Assembly (NCBI GenBank): GCA_039591615.1
Contig: JBDHDH010000004.1
Span: 1,825 to 65,824, forward strand
Reading direction: 5' to 3'
DNA: 64,000 bases
From: Gemmatimonadota bacterium
GTDB lineage: Bacteria > Gemmatimonadota > Gemmatimonadetes > Gemmatimonadales > GWC2-71-9
In this document: piece after piece, positions 46,945 to 52,880 of the stretch
How positions within the stretch are numbered: position 1 is the first letter of the stretch
Layout: every line of letters begins with the position of its first letter
Translations under genes and position numbers: made by a program
The notes under the pieces: generated by a model
Told to the model about the DNA's origin: nothing
Seen by the model: the letters and a program-made list of their open reading frames with translations, nothing else
Database searches by the model: none

Positions 46945-47954
46945 CCAAGATCAACCTCTGCATCCTCGGTTGCGGCGCCATTGCCAGGCTTCACAGCCGG
47001 GTAGCCCGTACCCTACGTTCGCGAGTCAATCTCCTCTACGCCAGCCGATCGCTCGAGACCGCGGAGACCTACAATCGCAAGTTCGGTGGGATCGGGGCCT
47101 TCGGCGACTACGAGTCCGCATGTGCGGACCCGCGGGTGGACGCCGTACTCATTTGCACGCCCCACGCGCTCCACGTCTCCCACGCGCATCTCGCGGCGCG
47201 CAATGGCAAGGCGATGCTGATCGAAAAGCCGGTCACCCGTACGCTCCAGGAGTTATCCGAAATCGAGCGCGTCGTCGGAGAGACAGGCGTTATCGCGATG
47301 GTCGCCGAGAACTACCATTTCAAGCCGCTCATCAACGTGCTACGGCAGCACATCACACGGGGCGACATGGGTGACGTGTTGTTCGTCGAGGTAAATCGCG
47401 CCGGAACGAGCACCATTCGGGGTTGGCGCGCAGATGCCGAGATGATGGGAGGGGGAGCGCTGCTGGAAGGCGGTGTGCACTGGATGAATCTGTTGGTGAA
47501 TATCGGAGGAAAAGTCGATACCGTCGTGGCTGCGCATCCCACAAAGGATAGGGAGCTCATCGCACCCTTCGAAGACAGCTTGGAGCTGCTCGTCAAGTTC
47601 GCGGACGGCGCCGTCGGCAAGCTGCTTCACGCCTGGAATCTGCGAAATCGCATCGGCGGCCTGAGCATCTCCAAGATCTACGGCAGCGACGGCAACATAC
47701 ACTTCGAAAGCAACGGTATCGCTGTGCTCGTTCTCGGGCGTCGCAAGCGCCTTCGACTCCCCGGATTCCTTGATATCATGGGCTATCGGGCCATGTTGAA
47801 GCACTTCGTCGATTGTGTGCAGGGTGGCCGGACGCCGAGCATGTCCCTGGCAGTCGCACGGCGCGACCTCCGGGTGATCGCCGCGGCGTACCGGTCGCTT
47901 GAGAGTGGGCACTTCGAATCCGCGCAGGAGGATCGCGATGTTCGAAATCACTAG
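46941..47954 (+). CDS. Gfo/Idh/MocA family NAD(P) oxidoreductase
   Basis: GCGAIA, CTPHALH, EKP, GGGALLEGGVH; GTGA overlap with GMC gene. Confidence 0.9.
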   Translation: MTKINLCILGCGAIARLHSRVARTLRSRVNLLYASRSLETAETYNRKFGGIGAFGDYESACADPRVDAVLICTPHALHVSHAHLAARNGKAMLIEKPVTRTLQELSEIERVVGETGVIAMVAENYHFKPLINVLRQHITRGDMGDVLFVEVNRAGTSTIRGWRADAEMMGGGALLEGGVHWMNLLVNIGGKVDTVVAAHPTKDRELIAPFEDSLELLVKFADGAVGKLLHAWNLRNRIGGLSISKIYGSDGNIHFESNGIAVLVLGRRKRLRLPGFLDIMGYRAMLKHFVDCVQGGRTPSMSLAVARRDLRVIAAAYRSLESGHFESAQEDRDVRNH

Positions 47955-48405
47955 CCCGGCATTCTCGGACGGAGGACCCATCCCCCGGGCACACACGTGC
48001 GACGGCGCAGACCTCTCCCCTCCCCTCACCTGGCGGGATGCCCCAAAAGGAACGAGTGCGTTCGCGCTCGTGGTGGACGACCCCGACGCCCCAGCGGGAA
48101 CCTGGGTCCACTGGGTGGTGTACGGCCTCGACGCGTCGACCACCAACCTGCCCGCTGGCATACCGACGACGCCCGAACTCGAGCAACCCATCGGGGCCAC
48201 GCAAGGCACCAACGATTTCCGGCGGAGCGGGTACGGCGGACCATGCCCGCCACGAGGGCGACCGCATCGATACGTGTTCACGCTGTACGCTCTCGATACG
48301 CGAATCGCGCTCCCACCGGGAGCCACCAAGAACGTGCTCCTGCGTGCCATCAAAGAACACGTTCTGGAAGAGGCAAAGATGATCGGGACGTACGGGAGGG
48401 GATAG
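47938..48405 (+). CDS. YbhB/YbcL family Raf kinase inhibitor-like (PEBP) protein
   Basis: SPPLTW, DPDAP, HWVVY, GYGGPCPP, HRYVFTLYALD. Confidence 0.93.
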   Translation: MFEITSPAFSDGGPIPRAHTCDGADLSPPLTWRDAPKGTSAFALVVDDPDAPAGTWVHWVVYGLDASTTNLPAGIPTTPELEQPIGATQGTNDFRRSGYGGPCPPRGRPHRYVFTLYALDTRIALPPGATKNVLLRAIKEHVLEEAKMIGTYGRG

Positions 48406-48487
48406 GCCGGTCCCACATGATCGCTTGACGGTGGAACGGCATAGCGGGACCCCCATCCACCCCACGGGCCACCCCCCGTACCGACAC

Positions 48488-48952
48488 TCACCGATACTCG
48501 ACATCCGTCGAGATGTCTACGCAGCCGCCGATACTCCGCGCCACGGGACAGGCCCCGGCGTGGACCGCCAGCACGCGTTCCACCGTTTGGCGCGCCTCGC
48601 CGGGAACCTCCAGCTCATACCGGACATGGATGCGCCGGATCACCAGAACGCCTTCCTCTTTCTCGATCTCACCGGTAACGTGGCCAACGAGGTGTTCCGG
48701 CTCGACCGCGACCCCGCGCGCTGCCAGCGCGCCAGCAAAGGTGCCGGTGAGTCAGCCGCCGGCCGCCGCCACCACATAGTCCAGGGTCGTCGCATGCGGG
48801 TCCTCCTCGCTCATATCGACGCCGTAGTGCTCGGCGACGGCTCCGTGAACGCCGAACGACACTGGCTTCGGCTCCGCCGGGATCATTGCACGGCGCAGCG
48901 GTCCGCCAATACGCTGAATCGTGGCCCGGGACGTGTAAACGACATCTGACAT
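48488..48952 (-). CDS. OsmC/Ohr-like peroxiredoxin-fold protein, probable selenoprotein (Sec at codon 67, TGA 48752-48754)
   Basis: SD GAGGGAGG + ATG 48952; ...TTLDYVVAAAGG-TGA-LTGTFAGAL... continues in frame 87 codons to HAGACPVARSI...EYR*; SECIS-like hairpin after the TGA. Confidence 0.82.
48701..48751 (-). promoter_or_regulatory. Bacterial SECIS-like stem-loop immediately 3' of the in-frame UGA
   Basis: ctcaccggcacctttgctg-GCGCGCT-ggc-AGCGCGC-ggggtcgcggtcgag; apical loop starts with G 27 nt after UGA. Confidence 0.7.
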
Positions 48953-48980
48953 CGGTCTGCCTCCCTCGCGAGTCGCCAGC

Positions 48981-50015
48981 ATGAACAGTCTGTACCTGAT
49001 TCTCCTCGTCTCCGCCACCGCGCAGGTGCAAAACCTTACCTGGGCAACCGCACCTCCGCTACCCGAGCCACGCGCCAACAATGCCGTGGCCGCCGTCACC
49101 ACGTCTCGGGGCCCAGCGGTGTTTTCCTTCCTGGGTCTCGACACCACCAAGGCATGGAACGGGGTTCGGAGCGAGGCCTACCGTTGGGACGTCGGAGGAG
49201 CCTCGTGGCGCACTGTGGCGCCGGTGCCCGGCCCGGGGCGCCTGGCGGCGACGGCGCAGGCCGTGCGCGGGAAGATCTACCTCTTCGGAGGCTACACCGT
49301 CGGGCGTGATGGCGCCGAGAAGTCTCTGCCGAACGTCGACATCTACGATCCCGAGAGTGATGCCTGGCATCGAGGAGCTCCTATCCCGGTTCCGACCGAC
49401 GACGCGGTTTCCGGGGTTTGGCGGGACTCACTCATCGTTCTGGTGTCGGGATGGCACGATCGGGACAACGTGGCCGACGTCCAGGTCTACGACCCCTCGA
49501 CGGATCGGTGGCGTCGGGCCGACCCCATCCCAGGCCCCCCCGTGTTCGGTCACGCCGGTGCCGTCGCCGGAGACGTGATCGTGTACATCGACGGCGTCCG
49601 AACCAGCGCCAGGCGTCCGCGCTTCGGTATCGAGGGCTCGTCATGGCTCGGCGCCATCGACCCGGACGACCCTCCAAACATCCGTTGGGGACGCCTGCCA
49701 CCGCATCCCGGGCCCCCGCTCTATCGCGCTGCCGCCGGCGCAGCCGGCCGATGGATCCTCTTCGCAGGAGGAACGGACAACCCGTACAACTTCAATGGCG
49801 TAGGATATGACGGCCAGCCGTCCGAACCCCGATCCGAAGTCTTTGCGTTCGATACGCTCCTACGTAGCTGGGCCAGACTACCGGACCTGCCGGTCGCCAC
49901 GATGGACCACCGCGGGATCGTGCTGGCCGAAGGGACGCTCGTGATCGTAGGCGGCATGATCGGCAACCAACGGGTGACCGATCGCGTGGCGACCGCACGT
50001 TGGCAGGAACCCTAG
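48981..50015 (+). CDS. Secreted Kelch-repeat beta-propeller protein
   Basis: Signal peptide; repeated GG...YDP...W units (IYLFGG, YDPESDAW, YDPSTDRW, LFAGG, IVGG). Confidence 0.88.
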   Translation: MNSLYLILLVSATAQVQNLTWATAPPLPEPRANNAVAAVTTSRGPAVFSFLGLDTTKAWNGVRSEAYRWDVGGASWRTVAPVPGPGRLAATAQAVRGKIYLFGGYTVGRDGAEKSLPNVDIYDPESDAWHRGAPIPVPTDDAVSGVWRDSLIVLVSGWHDRDNVADVQVYDPSTDRWRRADPIPGPPVFGHAGAVAGDVIVYIDGVRTSARRPRFGIEGSSWLGAIDPDDPPNIRWGRLPPHPGPPLYRAAAGAAGRWILFAGGTDNPYNFNGVGYDGQPSEPRSEVFAFDTLLRSWARLPDLPVATMDHRGIVLAEGTLVIVGGMIGNQRVTDRVATARWQEP

Positions 50016-50047: not shown

Positions 50048-51433
50048 TTAGAGCGCCTTCACTTCCTCTATGAGGTTCTTGACCGAGCTCTTGGCGTCAC
50101 CGAACAACATCGACGTCTTGGGATCGAAGAAGAGCGGGTTGTCGATTCCCGCGAATCCCGGCCGCATGCTCCGCTTCAGCACGATGACATTGTCGGACTT
50201 GTCGACGTCCAAGATCGGCATACCGGAGAGCTCACTCCCCGGAGTGCGGGCTGAAGGGTTCACGACGTCGTTCGCCCCGATGACCACGGATACGTCGGTC
50301 CGGGAGAACTCGGGATTGATCTCGTCCATATCGTACAGCTTGTCATACGGGACGTCTGCCTCTGCGAGCAGCACATTCATGTGCCCGGGCATGCGGCCGG
50401 CGACGGGATGGATGGCATACTTCACCTCGACCCCACGGCCCTCTAGTATGTCAGCCAGTTCCCGGACTTCGTGTTGCGCCTGCGCTACCGCTAGACCGTA
50501 CCCTGGGCAGAAGACGACGAGGCGGGCATAGGCCAGCATCATGGCGCCGTCCTCCGCGGTGATCGAGCGAACGCCTCTTCCCTCGATCCCAACAGGGCCC
50601 AGCGCCGCCGTTGCGTGCGCGCCGAACGCTCCGAACAGTACGTTGGCCAACGACCGATTCATCGCCTTGCACATGATGTTCGTGAGGATGAGTCCCGATG
50701 CACCGACCAGGGCGCCGCTGATGATCAATCCCTCGTTGCTAATCACGAAACCGGTCGTCGCTGCCGCGATACCCGAATAGGAGTTGAGCAGCGAGATCAC
50801 AACCGGCATGTCCGCACCGCCGATGGGAATCACCGAGAGAATCCCCAAAACCAGGGCCGCGGCCACGAGAATGCCGAGGGCGAGCGTACTGGATGGCTGC
50901 AGGACGACCCAGATCCCCACGGCGAGGATTCCCGCGAACAGGAAGCCGTTGAAGGTCTTCTGCAGTGGGTACGTGACGGCGCGGCCCGTTACGAGCTCCT
51001 GGAGCTTGCCGAACGCGATCACGCTTCCCGAAAATGTGACCGAGCCAATCAATACGCTCAACGGGATGGTGACAGCGACGTTGAGGGGTATGATCGCACC
51101 TGCCTGCAACGAGCGCAGGAGCTCCGCACTAGCCACCAGCGCCGAGGCGCCACCACCGAAGCCATTGAGCAGGGCCACCATCTGCGGCATGGCTGTCATC
51201 TCCACCATGCGGGCGAAGGTTGCACCGATGGCCGAGCCAACGACGATGCCGATGATGATCATTGGCCAAGTGAGAATGCCACCGAACGCGAGCGTCGTGA
51301 CGATGGCGATGAGCATCCCGAACGACGCCAGCCAGTTCCCGGATCGTGCAGTAGCCGGGGAGCTCAGGCGCTTGAGTCCTAAGATGAACAGGACCGCCGC
51401 AAGCAGATAGGCGAGCTTTGCAAGTCCTGCCAT
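50048..51433 (-). CDS. pntB: NAD(P) transhydrogenase subunit beta
   Basis: MTAMPQMVA, IGGADMPVVISLLNSYSG, PGYGLAVAQAQ, HPVAGRMPGHMNVLLAEA, IGANDVVNP. Confidence 0.97.
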   Translation of the reverse strand: MAGLAKLAYLLAAVLFILGLKRLSSPATARSGNWLASFGMLIAIVTTLAFGGILTWPMIIIGIVVGSAIGATFARMVEMTAMPQMVALLNGFGGGASALVASAELLRSLQAGAIIPLNVAVTIPLSVLIGSVTFSGSVIAFGKLQELVTGRAVTYPLQKTFNGFLFAGILAVGIWVVLQPSSTLALGILVAAALVLGILSVIPIGGADMPVVISLLNSYSGIAAATTGFVISNEGLIISGALVGASGLILTNIMCKAMNRSLANVLFGAFGAHATAALGPVGIEGRGVRSITAEDGAMMLAYARLVVFCPGYGLAVAQAQHEVRELADILEGRGVEVKYAIHPVAGRMPGHMNVLLAEADVPYDKLYDMDEINPEFSRTDVSVVIGANDVVNPSARTPGSELSGMPILDVDKSDNVIVLKRSMRPGFAGIDNPLFFDPKTSMLFGDAKSSVKNLIEEVKAL

Positions 51434-51729
51434 TACCGTTGCTCCTTCTTATCACGCCTGAACATCCGCAACATGCGATCGGTGACCAAGAACCCGCCCA
51501 CGACGTTGATCATGGCAAACACGACAGCGACGAGACCCAGAATGGATGCCGCGCGACTCTGCCCCCGCCCCGCCATTACGAGCGCACCGATGATGGTGAT
51601 TCCCGATATGGCATTGGAACCCGACATCAATGGCGTGTGGAGCGTCGGTGGAACCTTCGTAATGACTTCGAACCCGACAAACATCGCCAGGACGAAGATG
51701 ACGAGCAGACCAACCAGTTCCTCAATCAT
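51433..51729 (-). CDS. pntAB: NAD(P) transhydrogenase subunit alpha, membrane part (alpha2)
   Basis: VPPTLHTPLMSGSNAISG, GGFLVTDRMLRMF. Confidence 0.95.
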   Translation of the reverse strand: MIEELVGLLVIFVLAMFVGFEVITKVPPTLHTPLMSGSNAISGITIIGALVMAGRGQSRAASILGLVAVVFAMINVVGGFLVTDRMLRMFRRDKKEQR

Positions 51730-52880
51730 CCGCTGCTTCCTCCTGGGAGCGCCCGCTGGGTGGCTTCGTGGACGACCTGTCCTCCGTGGGTGATACAGGT
51801 GCCGCCAATGATCTCATCTTCGAAGTCGAGACTGAGCGCACCCTCTTTGATGAGGGTCTTTACGAATGCCGACATGTTCCGCGCGTACATCTGGCTGGCG
51901 TGGGTGGGCATGCTGGCCGGGACATTCAGCGGCGCCAGAACCGTCACACCATGGCGGAAAACGTCCTTCCCCGCCTCGGTGACCGCACAGTTCCCGCCCG
52001 CTTCGCTCGCAAGATCCACGATCACCGCGCCGGGCTTCATGTCACGCATCATCTCTTCCGTGATGAGCAGGGGGGCGGGTTTGCCGGGGATCAGGGCGGT
52101 AGTGATCACCACGTCGACGTTTCGAACGTGCTGATGGATGAGCTGCAGCTCCTGCTCGTGTTGCTCTTCGGAGAGCTGTTTCGCATATCCTCCAGCCGTC
52201 TCCGCGTCGGTGGCGACCGCCTCCGGTGCGATGAACTTCGCACCGAGACTCTCTACCTGTTCTTGCACCGCAGGACGCACGTCGAAGGCCTCGACGATGG
52301 CGCCGAGCCGGCGGGCGGTCGCGATGGCCTGGAGTCCGGCGACCCCCGCACCCAAGATCAGCACGCGAGCCGGTGGGATCGTCCCCGCCGCTGTGGTCAG
52401 CATGGGGAAGAATCGGCCCATGGCGGTCGCCGCCAGCAGCACCGATTTGTAGCCCGCCACCGTGCTCATGGACGAGAGGGCATCCATCGACTGTGCCCGG
52501 GTGATCCGGGGCAAGGCGTCGAGGCTGAACGCGGTGACCTTGCGTCGTGCGAGCTCGGAGACGAGCTCGTGATTGACCAGCGGTTGCAGCAGGGCGACGA
52601 GGACGACGCCTTCCCGCAAGAGCGCGAGCTCGTCACGCCCGCCCTCGTTCCGCGGGCACTGGACCTTGGCAACGACGTCCGCTTCTCGCCACAACGCTGC
52701 CGCATCCACCAGAGTGGCGCCGGCAGCCGCATACTCCTCGTCCGAGAACGCCGCCGCGAGCCCGGCGCCTCGCTCGACCCGGATTTCGACTCGGTCGCCG
52801 GCAAGACGCTTGGCCACGTCCGGAACGAGCGCCACGCGGCGTTCGCCCGGCATGCTCTCCTTCGCAACAGCAATGATCAC
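51726..52880 (-). CDS. pntAA: NAD(P) transhydrogenase subunit alpha, soluble part (alpha1)
   Basis: ERRVALVP, PRITRAQSMDALSSM, GAGVAGLQAIATARRLGA, TTALIPG, GGNC. Confidence 0.96.
   Translation of the reverse strand: MIIAVAKESMPGERRVALVPDVAKRLAGDRVEIRVERGAGLAAAFSDEEYAAAGATLVDAAALWREADVVAKVQCPRNEGGRDELALLREGVVLVALLQPLVNHELVSELARRKVTAFSLDALPRITRAQSMDALSSMSTVAGYKSVLLAATAMGRFFPMLTTAAGTIPPARVLILGAGVAGLQAIATARRLGAIVEAFDVRPAVQEQVESLGAKFIAPEAVATDAETAGGYAKQLSEEQHEQELQLIHQHVRNVDVVITTALIPGKPAPLLITEEMMRDMKPGAVIVDLASEAGGNCAVTEAGKDVFRHGVTVLAPLNVPASMPTHASQMYARNMSAFVKTLIKEGALSLDFEDEIIGGTCITHGGQVVHEATQRALPGGSSG

Follow-up and report, generated by a model that had tools for sequence, protein, structure and literature searches.

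We analysed a stretch of 64,000 nucleotides from a Gemmatimonadota bacterium (contig JBDHDH010000004.1 of assembly GCA_039591615.1), here called the window, in whose positions all coordinates below are given. On its minus strand, at 48952..48488, lies a gene that we read as one intact gene for a 154-residue selenoprotein of the OsmC/Ohr fold. The UGA at codon 67 would be decoded as selenocysteine (Sec) via SelB and a downstream hairpin, and the product would use Sec67 and Cys135 for peroxidase chemistry. We assign this reading of the gene a probability of about 0.9. Comparison of homologous sequences makes it very probable that the gene is a genuine selenoprotein gene; a hydroperoxide reductase is the activity that we would predict for its product, at slightly better than even odds.

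An OsmC-fold gene with an in-frame UGA

The gene runs from an ATG at 48952 to a terminal TGA at 48490..48488. When TGA is translated as U, positions 48952..48491 of the minus strand give a 154-aa product in which U is residue 67. The original prediction, a note made from the letters of the window, had listed these coordinates and this read-through sequence, and we reproduced both exactly; the strand was absent from it and is minus. The plus-strand reading of the same coordinates was tried and rejected, as its translation is meaningless and gives no protein. The strong Shine-Dalgarno sequence reported earlier is GGGAGG, 7 nt ahead of the ATG. The mechanically listed open reading frame (48752..49150, minus strand) terminates at the internal TGA, in agreement with the end at 48752 that had been noted. 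The features of the gene are the following:

48488..48952, minus strand: complete coding sequence of an OsmC-fold selenoprotein (154 aa plus stop), based on translation, Pfam, homolog coverage and the AlphaFold2 model
48960..48965, minus strand: Shine-Dalgarno sequence GGGAGG, 7 nt 5′ of the ATG, from direct sequence reading
48752..48754, minus strand: in-frame UGA, codon 67, read as selenocysteine at the first conserved (peroxidatic) Cys position, based on TGA conservation and PDB alignment
48716..48732, minus strand: hairpin of the selenocysteine insertion sequence (SECIS) type within the coding sequence, codons 74-79 (G-A-L-A-A-R), with stem GCGCGCU/AGCGCGC and loop GGC at 48725..48723, based on entropy and covariation
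48548..48550, minus strand: codon (TGT) of the putative resolving cysteine, Cys135, which is part of the motif ACPVAR, based on alignment and invariance

The Pfam OsmC domain (PF02566) was matched over aa 54-149, on both sides of the internal TGA, with an E-value of 4.9e-13 and a score of 49.8 bits against a gathering threshold of 27.5. Database homologs are 150-165 aa long and cover 96-100% of the 154-aa protein. An AlphaFold2 model based on 43 aligned homologs had a mean predicted local distance difference test (pLDDT) score of 95.4. When this model was compared with the PDB using Foldseek, the top structures were OsmC and Ohr proteins, namely 2onf with a template modelling (TM) score of 0.78, Escherichia coli OsmC 1nye with 0.71 and several Ohr proteins with 0.66-0.73, and many OsmC and Ohr chains were matched with a probability of 1.00. 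The Pfam match and the similarity to 2onf thus confirm the OsmC/Ohr fold that had been proposed from the letters.

In profile searches of the PDB, column 67 aligned with the conserved Cys of Ta0195 (2onf), of Thermus thermophilus OsmC 1ukk ('AAHAGC') and of E. coli YhfA 1ml8 ('AAGGC'). Cys135 aligned with the Cys in 'GCPVSRAL' of 1ukk, and both Cys residues of 2onf were aligned as well. By these alignments, of the two redox cysteines of the fold the UGA corresponds to the first and the cysteine of the CPV motif to the second, which is the Cys pair that the original prediction had in mind. Cys135 is invariant in both of our clade alignments (A1 and A2) and is present in 119 of the 121 sequences of the database-homolog set. 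The invariant residues of the clade are P25, H36, A40, H42, Y43, T56, D58, G70, L103 and C135. R20 is kept in 99% of the 160 genes described below, and we would guess that it is equivalent to the catalytic Arg of OsmC.

The conservation of the UGA was followed in 160 loci, 80 from named species genomes (neutral peptide pattern) and 80 from metagenomes, with all 160 genes distinct. Column 67 has the codon TGA in all of them (80/80 genome and 80/80 metagenome loci), at identities to the query of 51-71%; a search for homologs with Cys or TGA at this column, suggested earlier, therefore returned TGA in every locus, with Cys in a minority of the database homologs. According to their record titles, the genome loci belong to about ten phyla: Gemmatimonadota (the top 14 of the 80), Latescibacterota, NC10/Methylomirabilota/Rokubacteria, Acidobacteriota, Chloroflexota, Desulfobacterales and 'delta proteobacteria', Poribacteria, Actinomycetota, Binatia and Bacteroidota. 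The best 14 of these 80 come from metagenome-assembled genomes (MAGs) of the Gemmatimonadota lineage, which fits the phylum guessed earlier for the DNA. In the phylum of the window, all 74 matches, which were found in 48 of 201 genomes, contain exactly one TGA. In addition, two independent contigs, X2 from another sample (depth 14.3) and X4 from another study, have no difference at 48752-48754. The TGA was therefore retained when it was checked for a sequencing error, by which the original prediction could have failed.

Among 60 relatives of the window genome, we found 10 strong matches in 7 genomes. Nine of these have a single TGA, located in the same column by inspection, and one of the nine (L027) is from an unpublished genome, G016. 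The tenth match (L028, genome G032) has Ser at the Sec column, and the hairpin codons G-A-L-x-A-R are lost (TAGLEKR). A selA gene over the cut-off was not found in G032, which is 91% complete and is one of 7 such genomes out of 61, and all 7 TGA-bearing genomes, including that of the window, have selA.

Single sequences deviated from this pattern in other ways. The metagenome locus L182 has an in-frame TAG about 23 codons past the TGA (…DPKR*EV), which may mark a broken copy or a local error. In the database homolog P0048, which belongs to a genome of 5.86 Mb, the Sec column is Leu, although the TGA-bearing metagenome locus L184 shares 94.7% identity with it; this may be a recent loss of Sec to Leu or an annotation quirk. 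P0027 likewise has Leu at this column.

The window genome (completeness 94.8%) contains selA (509 bits), selB (361 bits) and selD (365 bits), all over their curated cut-offs, and a tRNA-Sec with the anticodon UCA (TCA in DNA), found with Rfam (78 bits) and with ARAGORN. All components of the selABCD system that the original prediction implied are therefore present. The selD gene, on the minus strand of contig C39 (39743-40675, locus L010), has one in-frame TGA, in 'SHGAGUACK', and SelD is therefore itself a selenoprotein. Its hairpin, GGCGCAG-GUG-CUGCGCC, lies 30-46 nt after its UGA and is similar in style to that of the OsmC-like gene. The genome also has release factor 2 (RF2), and TGA ends three of the seven Pfam-supported neighbouring genes as well as the selenoprotein gene itself, indicating that TGA is an ordinary stop codon in a standard code. 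In an order-level sample of relatives, 54 of 61 genomes have a selA that exceeds the curated cut-off, so the use of selenocysteine is widespread in the lineage.

The hairpin downstream of the UGA

The sequence 3′ of the UGA reads UGACUCACCGGCACCUUUGCUG-GCGCGCU-GGC-AGCGCGC and folds into a perfect stem of 7 bp that closes a loop of 3 nt. Numbered from the U of the UGA, the 5′ arm GCGCGCU occupies nt 23-29, the loop GGC nt 30-32 and the 3′ arm AGCGCGC nt 33-39. This is the hairpin that had been described before, with its perfect 7-bp stem and the first loop G 27 nt past the A of the UGA.

We determined the third-base entropy at 90 fourfold-degenerate sites over the 160 genes. The 85 sites outside the hairpin have a mean of 1.65 bits and a minimum of 1.04, whereas the four lowest of the 90 entropies are those of codons 75, 78, 76 and 74 (0.23, 0.27, 0.27 and 0.62 bits, respectively). 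The probability that the four lowest sites all fall among the five hairpin codons is about 2e-6. At codon 79 the third base is C or T only, which gives a G-C or a G-U pair. Even the AT-rich members of the clade keep GGCGCGCUGGARGCGCG.

Relatives of the window genome also harbour a paralogous OsmC-fold Sec clade, with the motif GGU-[ML]LGTLNGALEVRG and the second motif CPTA, compared to CPVA in the window clade. Its loci are L029, L030, L036-L038 and L212-L240, with P0124 from L036 as an example. Proteins of this clade are 43% identical to the window protein and share the Sec column and the place of the hairpin. Every copy has one TGA, and the two clades occur together in many genomes of the phylum; when the window genome was searched with the window query, only the window gene was matched and the paralogous clade was not found. 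The hairpin of the paralogous clade is GCGCACU-GGA-GGUGCGC, in which pair 27-35 is A-U where the window clade has G-C. In three paralogous members with Ala for Val at residue 78, both sides of this pair are back to G-C, and one member has U-A at pair 26-36, a compensatory change between C-G and U-A. The paralogous clade settles the register of the hairpin.

Pairs were counted in a set of 69 sequences, made up of the window, 40 main-clade sequences (chosen for diversity, deviants among them) and 28 from the paralogous clade. In this set 94.6% of the cells are paired. Pair 27-35 is G-C in 38 sequences, A-U in 25 and unpaired in 6, and no one-sided change was observed. Slid registers are only 17-71% paired, and the observed covariation score was reached by 0 of 500 shuffles, a test that overstates the support because the events are few and the sequences related. 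We therefore take the compensatory pairing as supportive and not as a formal probability. As judged by these comparisons between homologs, the hairpin is under selection at the RNA level. It fits a bacterial SECIS, as had been proposed, being a stem-loop shortly 3′ of the UGA whose apical loop is small and contains G, with frozen synonymous sites and compensatory pairs.

A handful of homologs carry another GC-rich hairpin in the same place. These are L103 and L111 (with Actinomycetota titles), L157, L164 and L192, with for instance GGGCC-CUCGC-GGCCC, which suggests lineage-specific SECIS variants. As a Cys-form control, the Tenacibaculum homolog P0050 was searched against 301 genomes of a single phylum, that of the Bacteroidota MAG with locus L119, and the sole match was that MAG's own TGA-form gene.

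Predicted activity and alternative readings

In the mechanism that we propose, SelB carrying Sec-tRNA(UCA) would decode the UGA at codon 67 as selenocysteine, after being recruited by the GC-rich hairpin 23-39 nt downstream, in the codons of G74-R79. Sec67, in place of the peroxidatic cysteine, would attack a hydroperoxide and become a selenenic acid. Cys135 of the CPV motif would resolve the selenenic acid to a selenenylsulfide, which a thiol donor (a lipoyl protein or one of the thioredoxin type) could then reduce, as in OsmC and Ohr. The Sec-dependent peroxidase of the original prediction is thus upheld in its Sec part, and the peroxidase activity stays a prediction.

Several observations weigh against this reading. 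Both the incorporation of selenium and the activity are predicted; no RNA run was found to contain the stretch, and no proteome data were found for it. The folding energy of the hairpin region does not stand out from shuffled sequences (minimum free energy −32.2 kcal/mol, z = 0.12, with 106 of 200 shuffles folding as well). The main clade alone gives no covariation because its stem is invariant, with 0 double changes in 150 sequences (149 of 154 unique segments plus the window). RNAalifold favours a shorter register of 4 bp with a 7-nt loop, and the compensatory changes amount to few evolutionary events among related sequences. A Rfam scan of 48300-49200, with E-values up to 10, returned no SECIS family and only a chance match to snoZ6 on the neighbouring gene. 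On the side of the protein, the catalytic Arg and Glu of Ohr and OsmC were not located, as the N-terminal part is unaligned to the characterised enzymes. The clade invariants H36, H42, Y43 and D58 are not the classical catalytic residues of Ohr and OsmC, and the substrate may therefore differ. No conserved neighbour hints at the reductant either, the best recurring one being present in 9 of 80 loci. We nevertheless consider the hairpin to be above chance because of the TGA in 160/160 loci, the frozen synonymous sites and the compensatory pairs.

A pseudogene or artefact, in which an ordinary Cys-type OsmC gene has been interrupted by a nonsense mutation or by an error of sequencing or assembly, would be expected to leave a lone in-frame stop in one genome, which is how the window looks when taken by itself. 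The same TGA is however found in 160/160 and 74/74 loci from about ten phyla, and the coding sequence 3′ of it is conserved at the protein level. The identities of 51-71% to the query also show that the loci are not copies of one contaminating sequence. Because the TGA is universal in these loci and identical in independent assemblies, a pseudogene, a strain-specific nonsense mutation and an assembly error are effectively excluded. It is also very improbable that read-through of the UGA inserts an ordinary amino acid, be it Trp, Cys or Gly by near-cognate decoding or through a reassigned code. This idea draws on the 120 database homologs P0003-P0122, in which the residue at column 67 is Trp in 101, Cys in 14, Leu in 2, Gly in 2 and Ala in 1. 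Yet TGG occurs in 0 of the 160 loci, all of which have TGA, and with RF2 present TGA is used as a stop, including at the end of this very gene. Moreover, a dedicated hairpin under selection lies just 3′ of the UGA, and the column is the one at which the fold has its catalytic Cys. The Sec machinery is found together with the TGA form, the lone Ser form being in a genome without a selA match.

A genuine selenoprotein with another role is a possibility that we take seriously, while holding it to be less likely than a peroxidase. Sec67 and Cys135 would then serve other redox chemistry, or the handling of chalcogens or metals, using His36, His42, Tyr43 and Asp58. No characterised subfamily model matches the protein: the model of the OsmC subfamily proper, TIGR03562, gives 29.4 bits against a cut-off of 85.8, and the SACOL1771 model 18 against 166. 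The nearest solved structure, 2onf, is uncharacterised and 16% identical, and large parts of the OsmC superfamily (YhfA-like) are without known activity. The alignments of the clade also contain an invariant FGVHG-x-IAEHY motif, which is not known to belong to the catalytic set of Ohr and OsmC; the invariant His/His/Tyr/Asp set is likewise not known from OsmC or Ohr proteins. On the other hand, the redox positions match the Cys pair of OsmC, whose family is named peroxiredoxin, and the fold is like that of the Ohr and OsmC peroxidases (TM 0.66-0.73). Sec at the peroxidatic position is a common pattern of selenoenzymes, and its presence here favours a peroxidase.

The Trp residues in the catalogues are most likely TGA codons read under the wrong table, since TGG was found in none of the 160 loci. 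They would be misreadings by gene callers, as judged from the DNA of the retrieved loci. By eye, the Trp-form homologs come from metagenome contigs of about 3 kb or less. Some of the 14 Cys forms may be Sec (U) stored as C; no identical pairs were found between the Cys-form database homologs and the retrieved loci. The main annotation error seen is thus Trp at the site and not gene splitting, although a standard gene call would truncate the gene at codon 67. A dedicated model would correct hundreds of records from many phyla.

The gene stands alone, with a divergent Kelch-repeat gene on one side and a convergent gene for a GFO/IDH/MocA oxidoreductase on the other. Among the 80 genome loci no conserved neighbour or operon partner was found, the best cluster (9/80) being lineage-specific. 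The window also contains a pntB and pntA pair (NAD(P) transhydrogenase) at 50048-52880 on the minus strand, next to the gene for the Kelch-repeat protein at 48981-50015 on the plus strand; neither the pair nor the Kelch-repeat gene is conserved beside homologs elsewhere. A promoter and terminator scan of 47900-49100 found none. The approximately 530 bp 3′ of the gene (47955-48487) contain no Pfam-supported open reading frame and no promoter- or terminator-like site.

Relation to other OsmC-like proteins

An OsmC-like selenoprotein family has been in print since a survey of the Sargasso Sea, which lists three sequences (COG1765) with the motif UxxT (Zhang, Fomenko & Gladyshev 2005, PMC1088965). 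The survey gives 3 Sec against 10 Cys homologs of the family and states that the screen demanded at least two Cys homologs per candidate (PMC1088965). In the Global Ocean Sampling (GOS) survey the family appears again, with UxxT and 5 Sec against 161 Cys homologs (PMC2398784), and in two reviews from 2022 and 2026 the 'OsmC-like protein, PF02566' forms a single row (PMC9312934; PMC13188914). NCBIfam holds a curated model, NF041052, named 'OsmC-related (seleno)protein' (OsmC_like_Se). From the shared motif, the published UxxT family would be the same as NF041052.

We consider it unlikely that the window gene is a plain member of this curated and published family. Both belong to PF02566, have Sec at the same place in the structure and are decoded by the same mechanism, and the reviews give 'OsmC-like protein' one row. 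With NF041052, whose cut-off is 95, the window protein however scores 21.8 bits. The paralog P0124 is also far under this cut-off, as are two database homologs, P0006 and P0050. In the phylum of the window, 0 of 201 genomes have a protein over the cut-off. L079 comes from a Desulfobacterales genome, and among 301 genomes of its phylum three true members were found; they have one TGA each and score 139-170 bits. They have the motifs AFULLT, AFULLT and GFUMFS and, around the second Cys, GC[YHF]V; the hairpins are different from that of the window gene. A BLASTP comparison of the window protein with one of them gave E = 10. The redox motif of the window protein is U-L-T-G-T, with an invariant G at +3, and does not have the form UxxT. 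Because of the motifs, the model scores and the BLASTP result, the UxxT family fits NF041052 and not the ULTGT clade. A recognised class of OsmC-like selenoproteins, invoked by the original prediction, thus does exist in print, but the printed class is a different clade from the window gene.

The window gene thus encodes a genuine selenoprotein whose general kind (OsmC-like) is already known, and it belongs to a clade outside the reach of the curated model. Going by the loci retrieved, this clade appears to be always Sec and separate from the curated and published UxxT family. A separate description of the ULTGT clade was not found in our searches of the literature on OsmC and Gemmatimonad selenoproteins; survey supplements may list sequences of the clade, which may have been lumped under the name 'OsmC-like'. 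A broader proposal, which we advance tentatively, is that of an unrecognised family, made up of two paralogous OsmC-superfamily clades in which Sec was acquired or kept independently of the UxxT family. In it Sec would be near-obligate across about ten phyla, with an ultraconserved SECIS within the G-A-L-E/A-A/V-R codons, in which residue 78 (Ala/Val) co-varies with Ala75 GCG/GCA. Its members would be catalogued mostly with Trp at the active site because NF041052 scores the family far under its cut-off.

To a specialist these findings are unsurprising, but they are well supported and useful for annotation. They would add a Sec-dependent enzyme of the antioxidant type to a Gemmatimonadota-like genome from marine sediment. 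The hairpin is a clean case in which RNA structure and protein sequence constrain the same codons, and for work on the enzymology of OsmC-fold selenoproteins the clade provides many natural sequences. As screens for Sec/Cys pairs required Cys homologs, at least in the Sargasso Sea survey, they could under-detect clades that are nearly always Sec.

Compared to the OsmC/Ohr thiol peroxidases (1nye/1qwi, 1ukk, and the Ohr structures 1n2f/1zb9/6ebg), the window protein is alike in fold, in the positions of the two redox residues and in length (approximately 140-155 aa). The identities are only 13-18%, and the window protein has Sec for the peroxidatic Cys. The window clade also differs by its invariant His, His, Tyr and Asp, and the hidden Markov models (HMMs) of the subfamilies leave it far under their cut-offs. 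Ta0195 of Thermoplasma acidophilum (2onf) heads the structural matches (rmsd 2.5) and alone in the PDB has significant sequence similarity (E 0.0013), with both Cys positions aligned. It is, at 16% identity, an archaeal protein of the Cys form, described as a putative OsmC-like protein without known function.

The UxxT family (NF041052) is like the window clade in PF02566, in having Sec for the first redox Cys and another Cys close to the C-terminus, and in a bacterial SECIS hairpin with a small G-containing loop just past the UGA; its function is also uncharacterised. The motifs, on the other hand, are ULTGT...ACPVAR in the window clade and U[LM][LF][TS]...GC[YHF]V in the UxxT family, and the hairpins differ in sequence and spacing. 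Finally, the UxxT family has, by the counts in the two surveys, many more Cys than Sec homologs, whereas in the loci that we retrieved the TGA of the window clade is universal.

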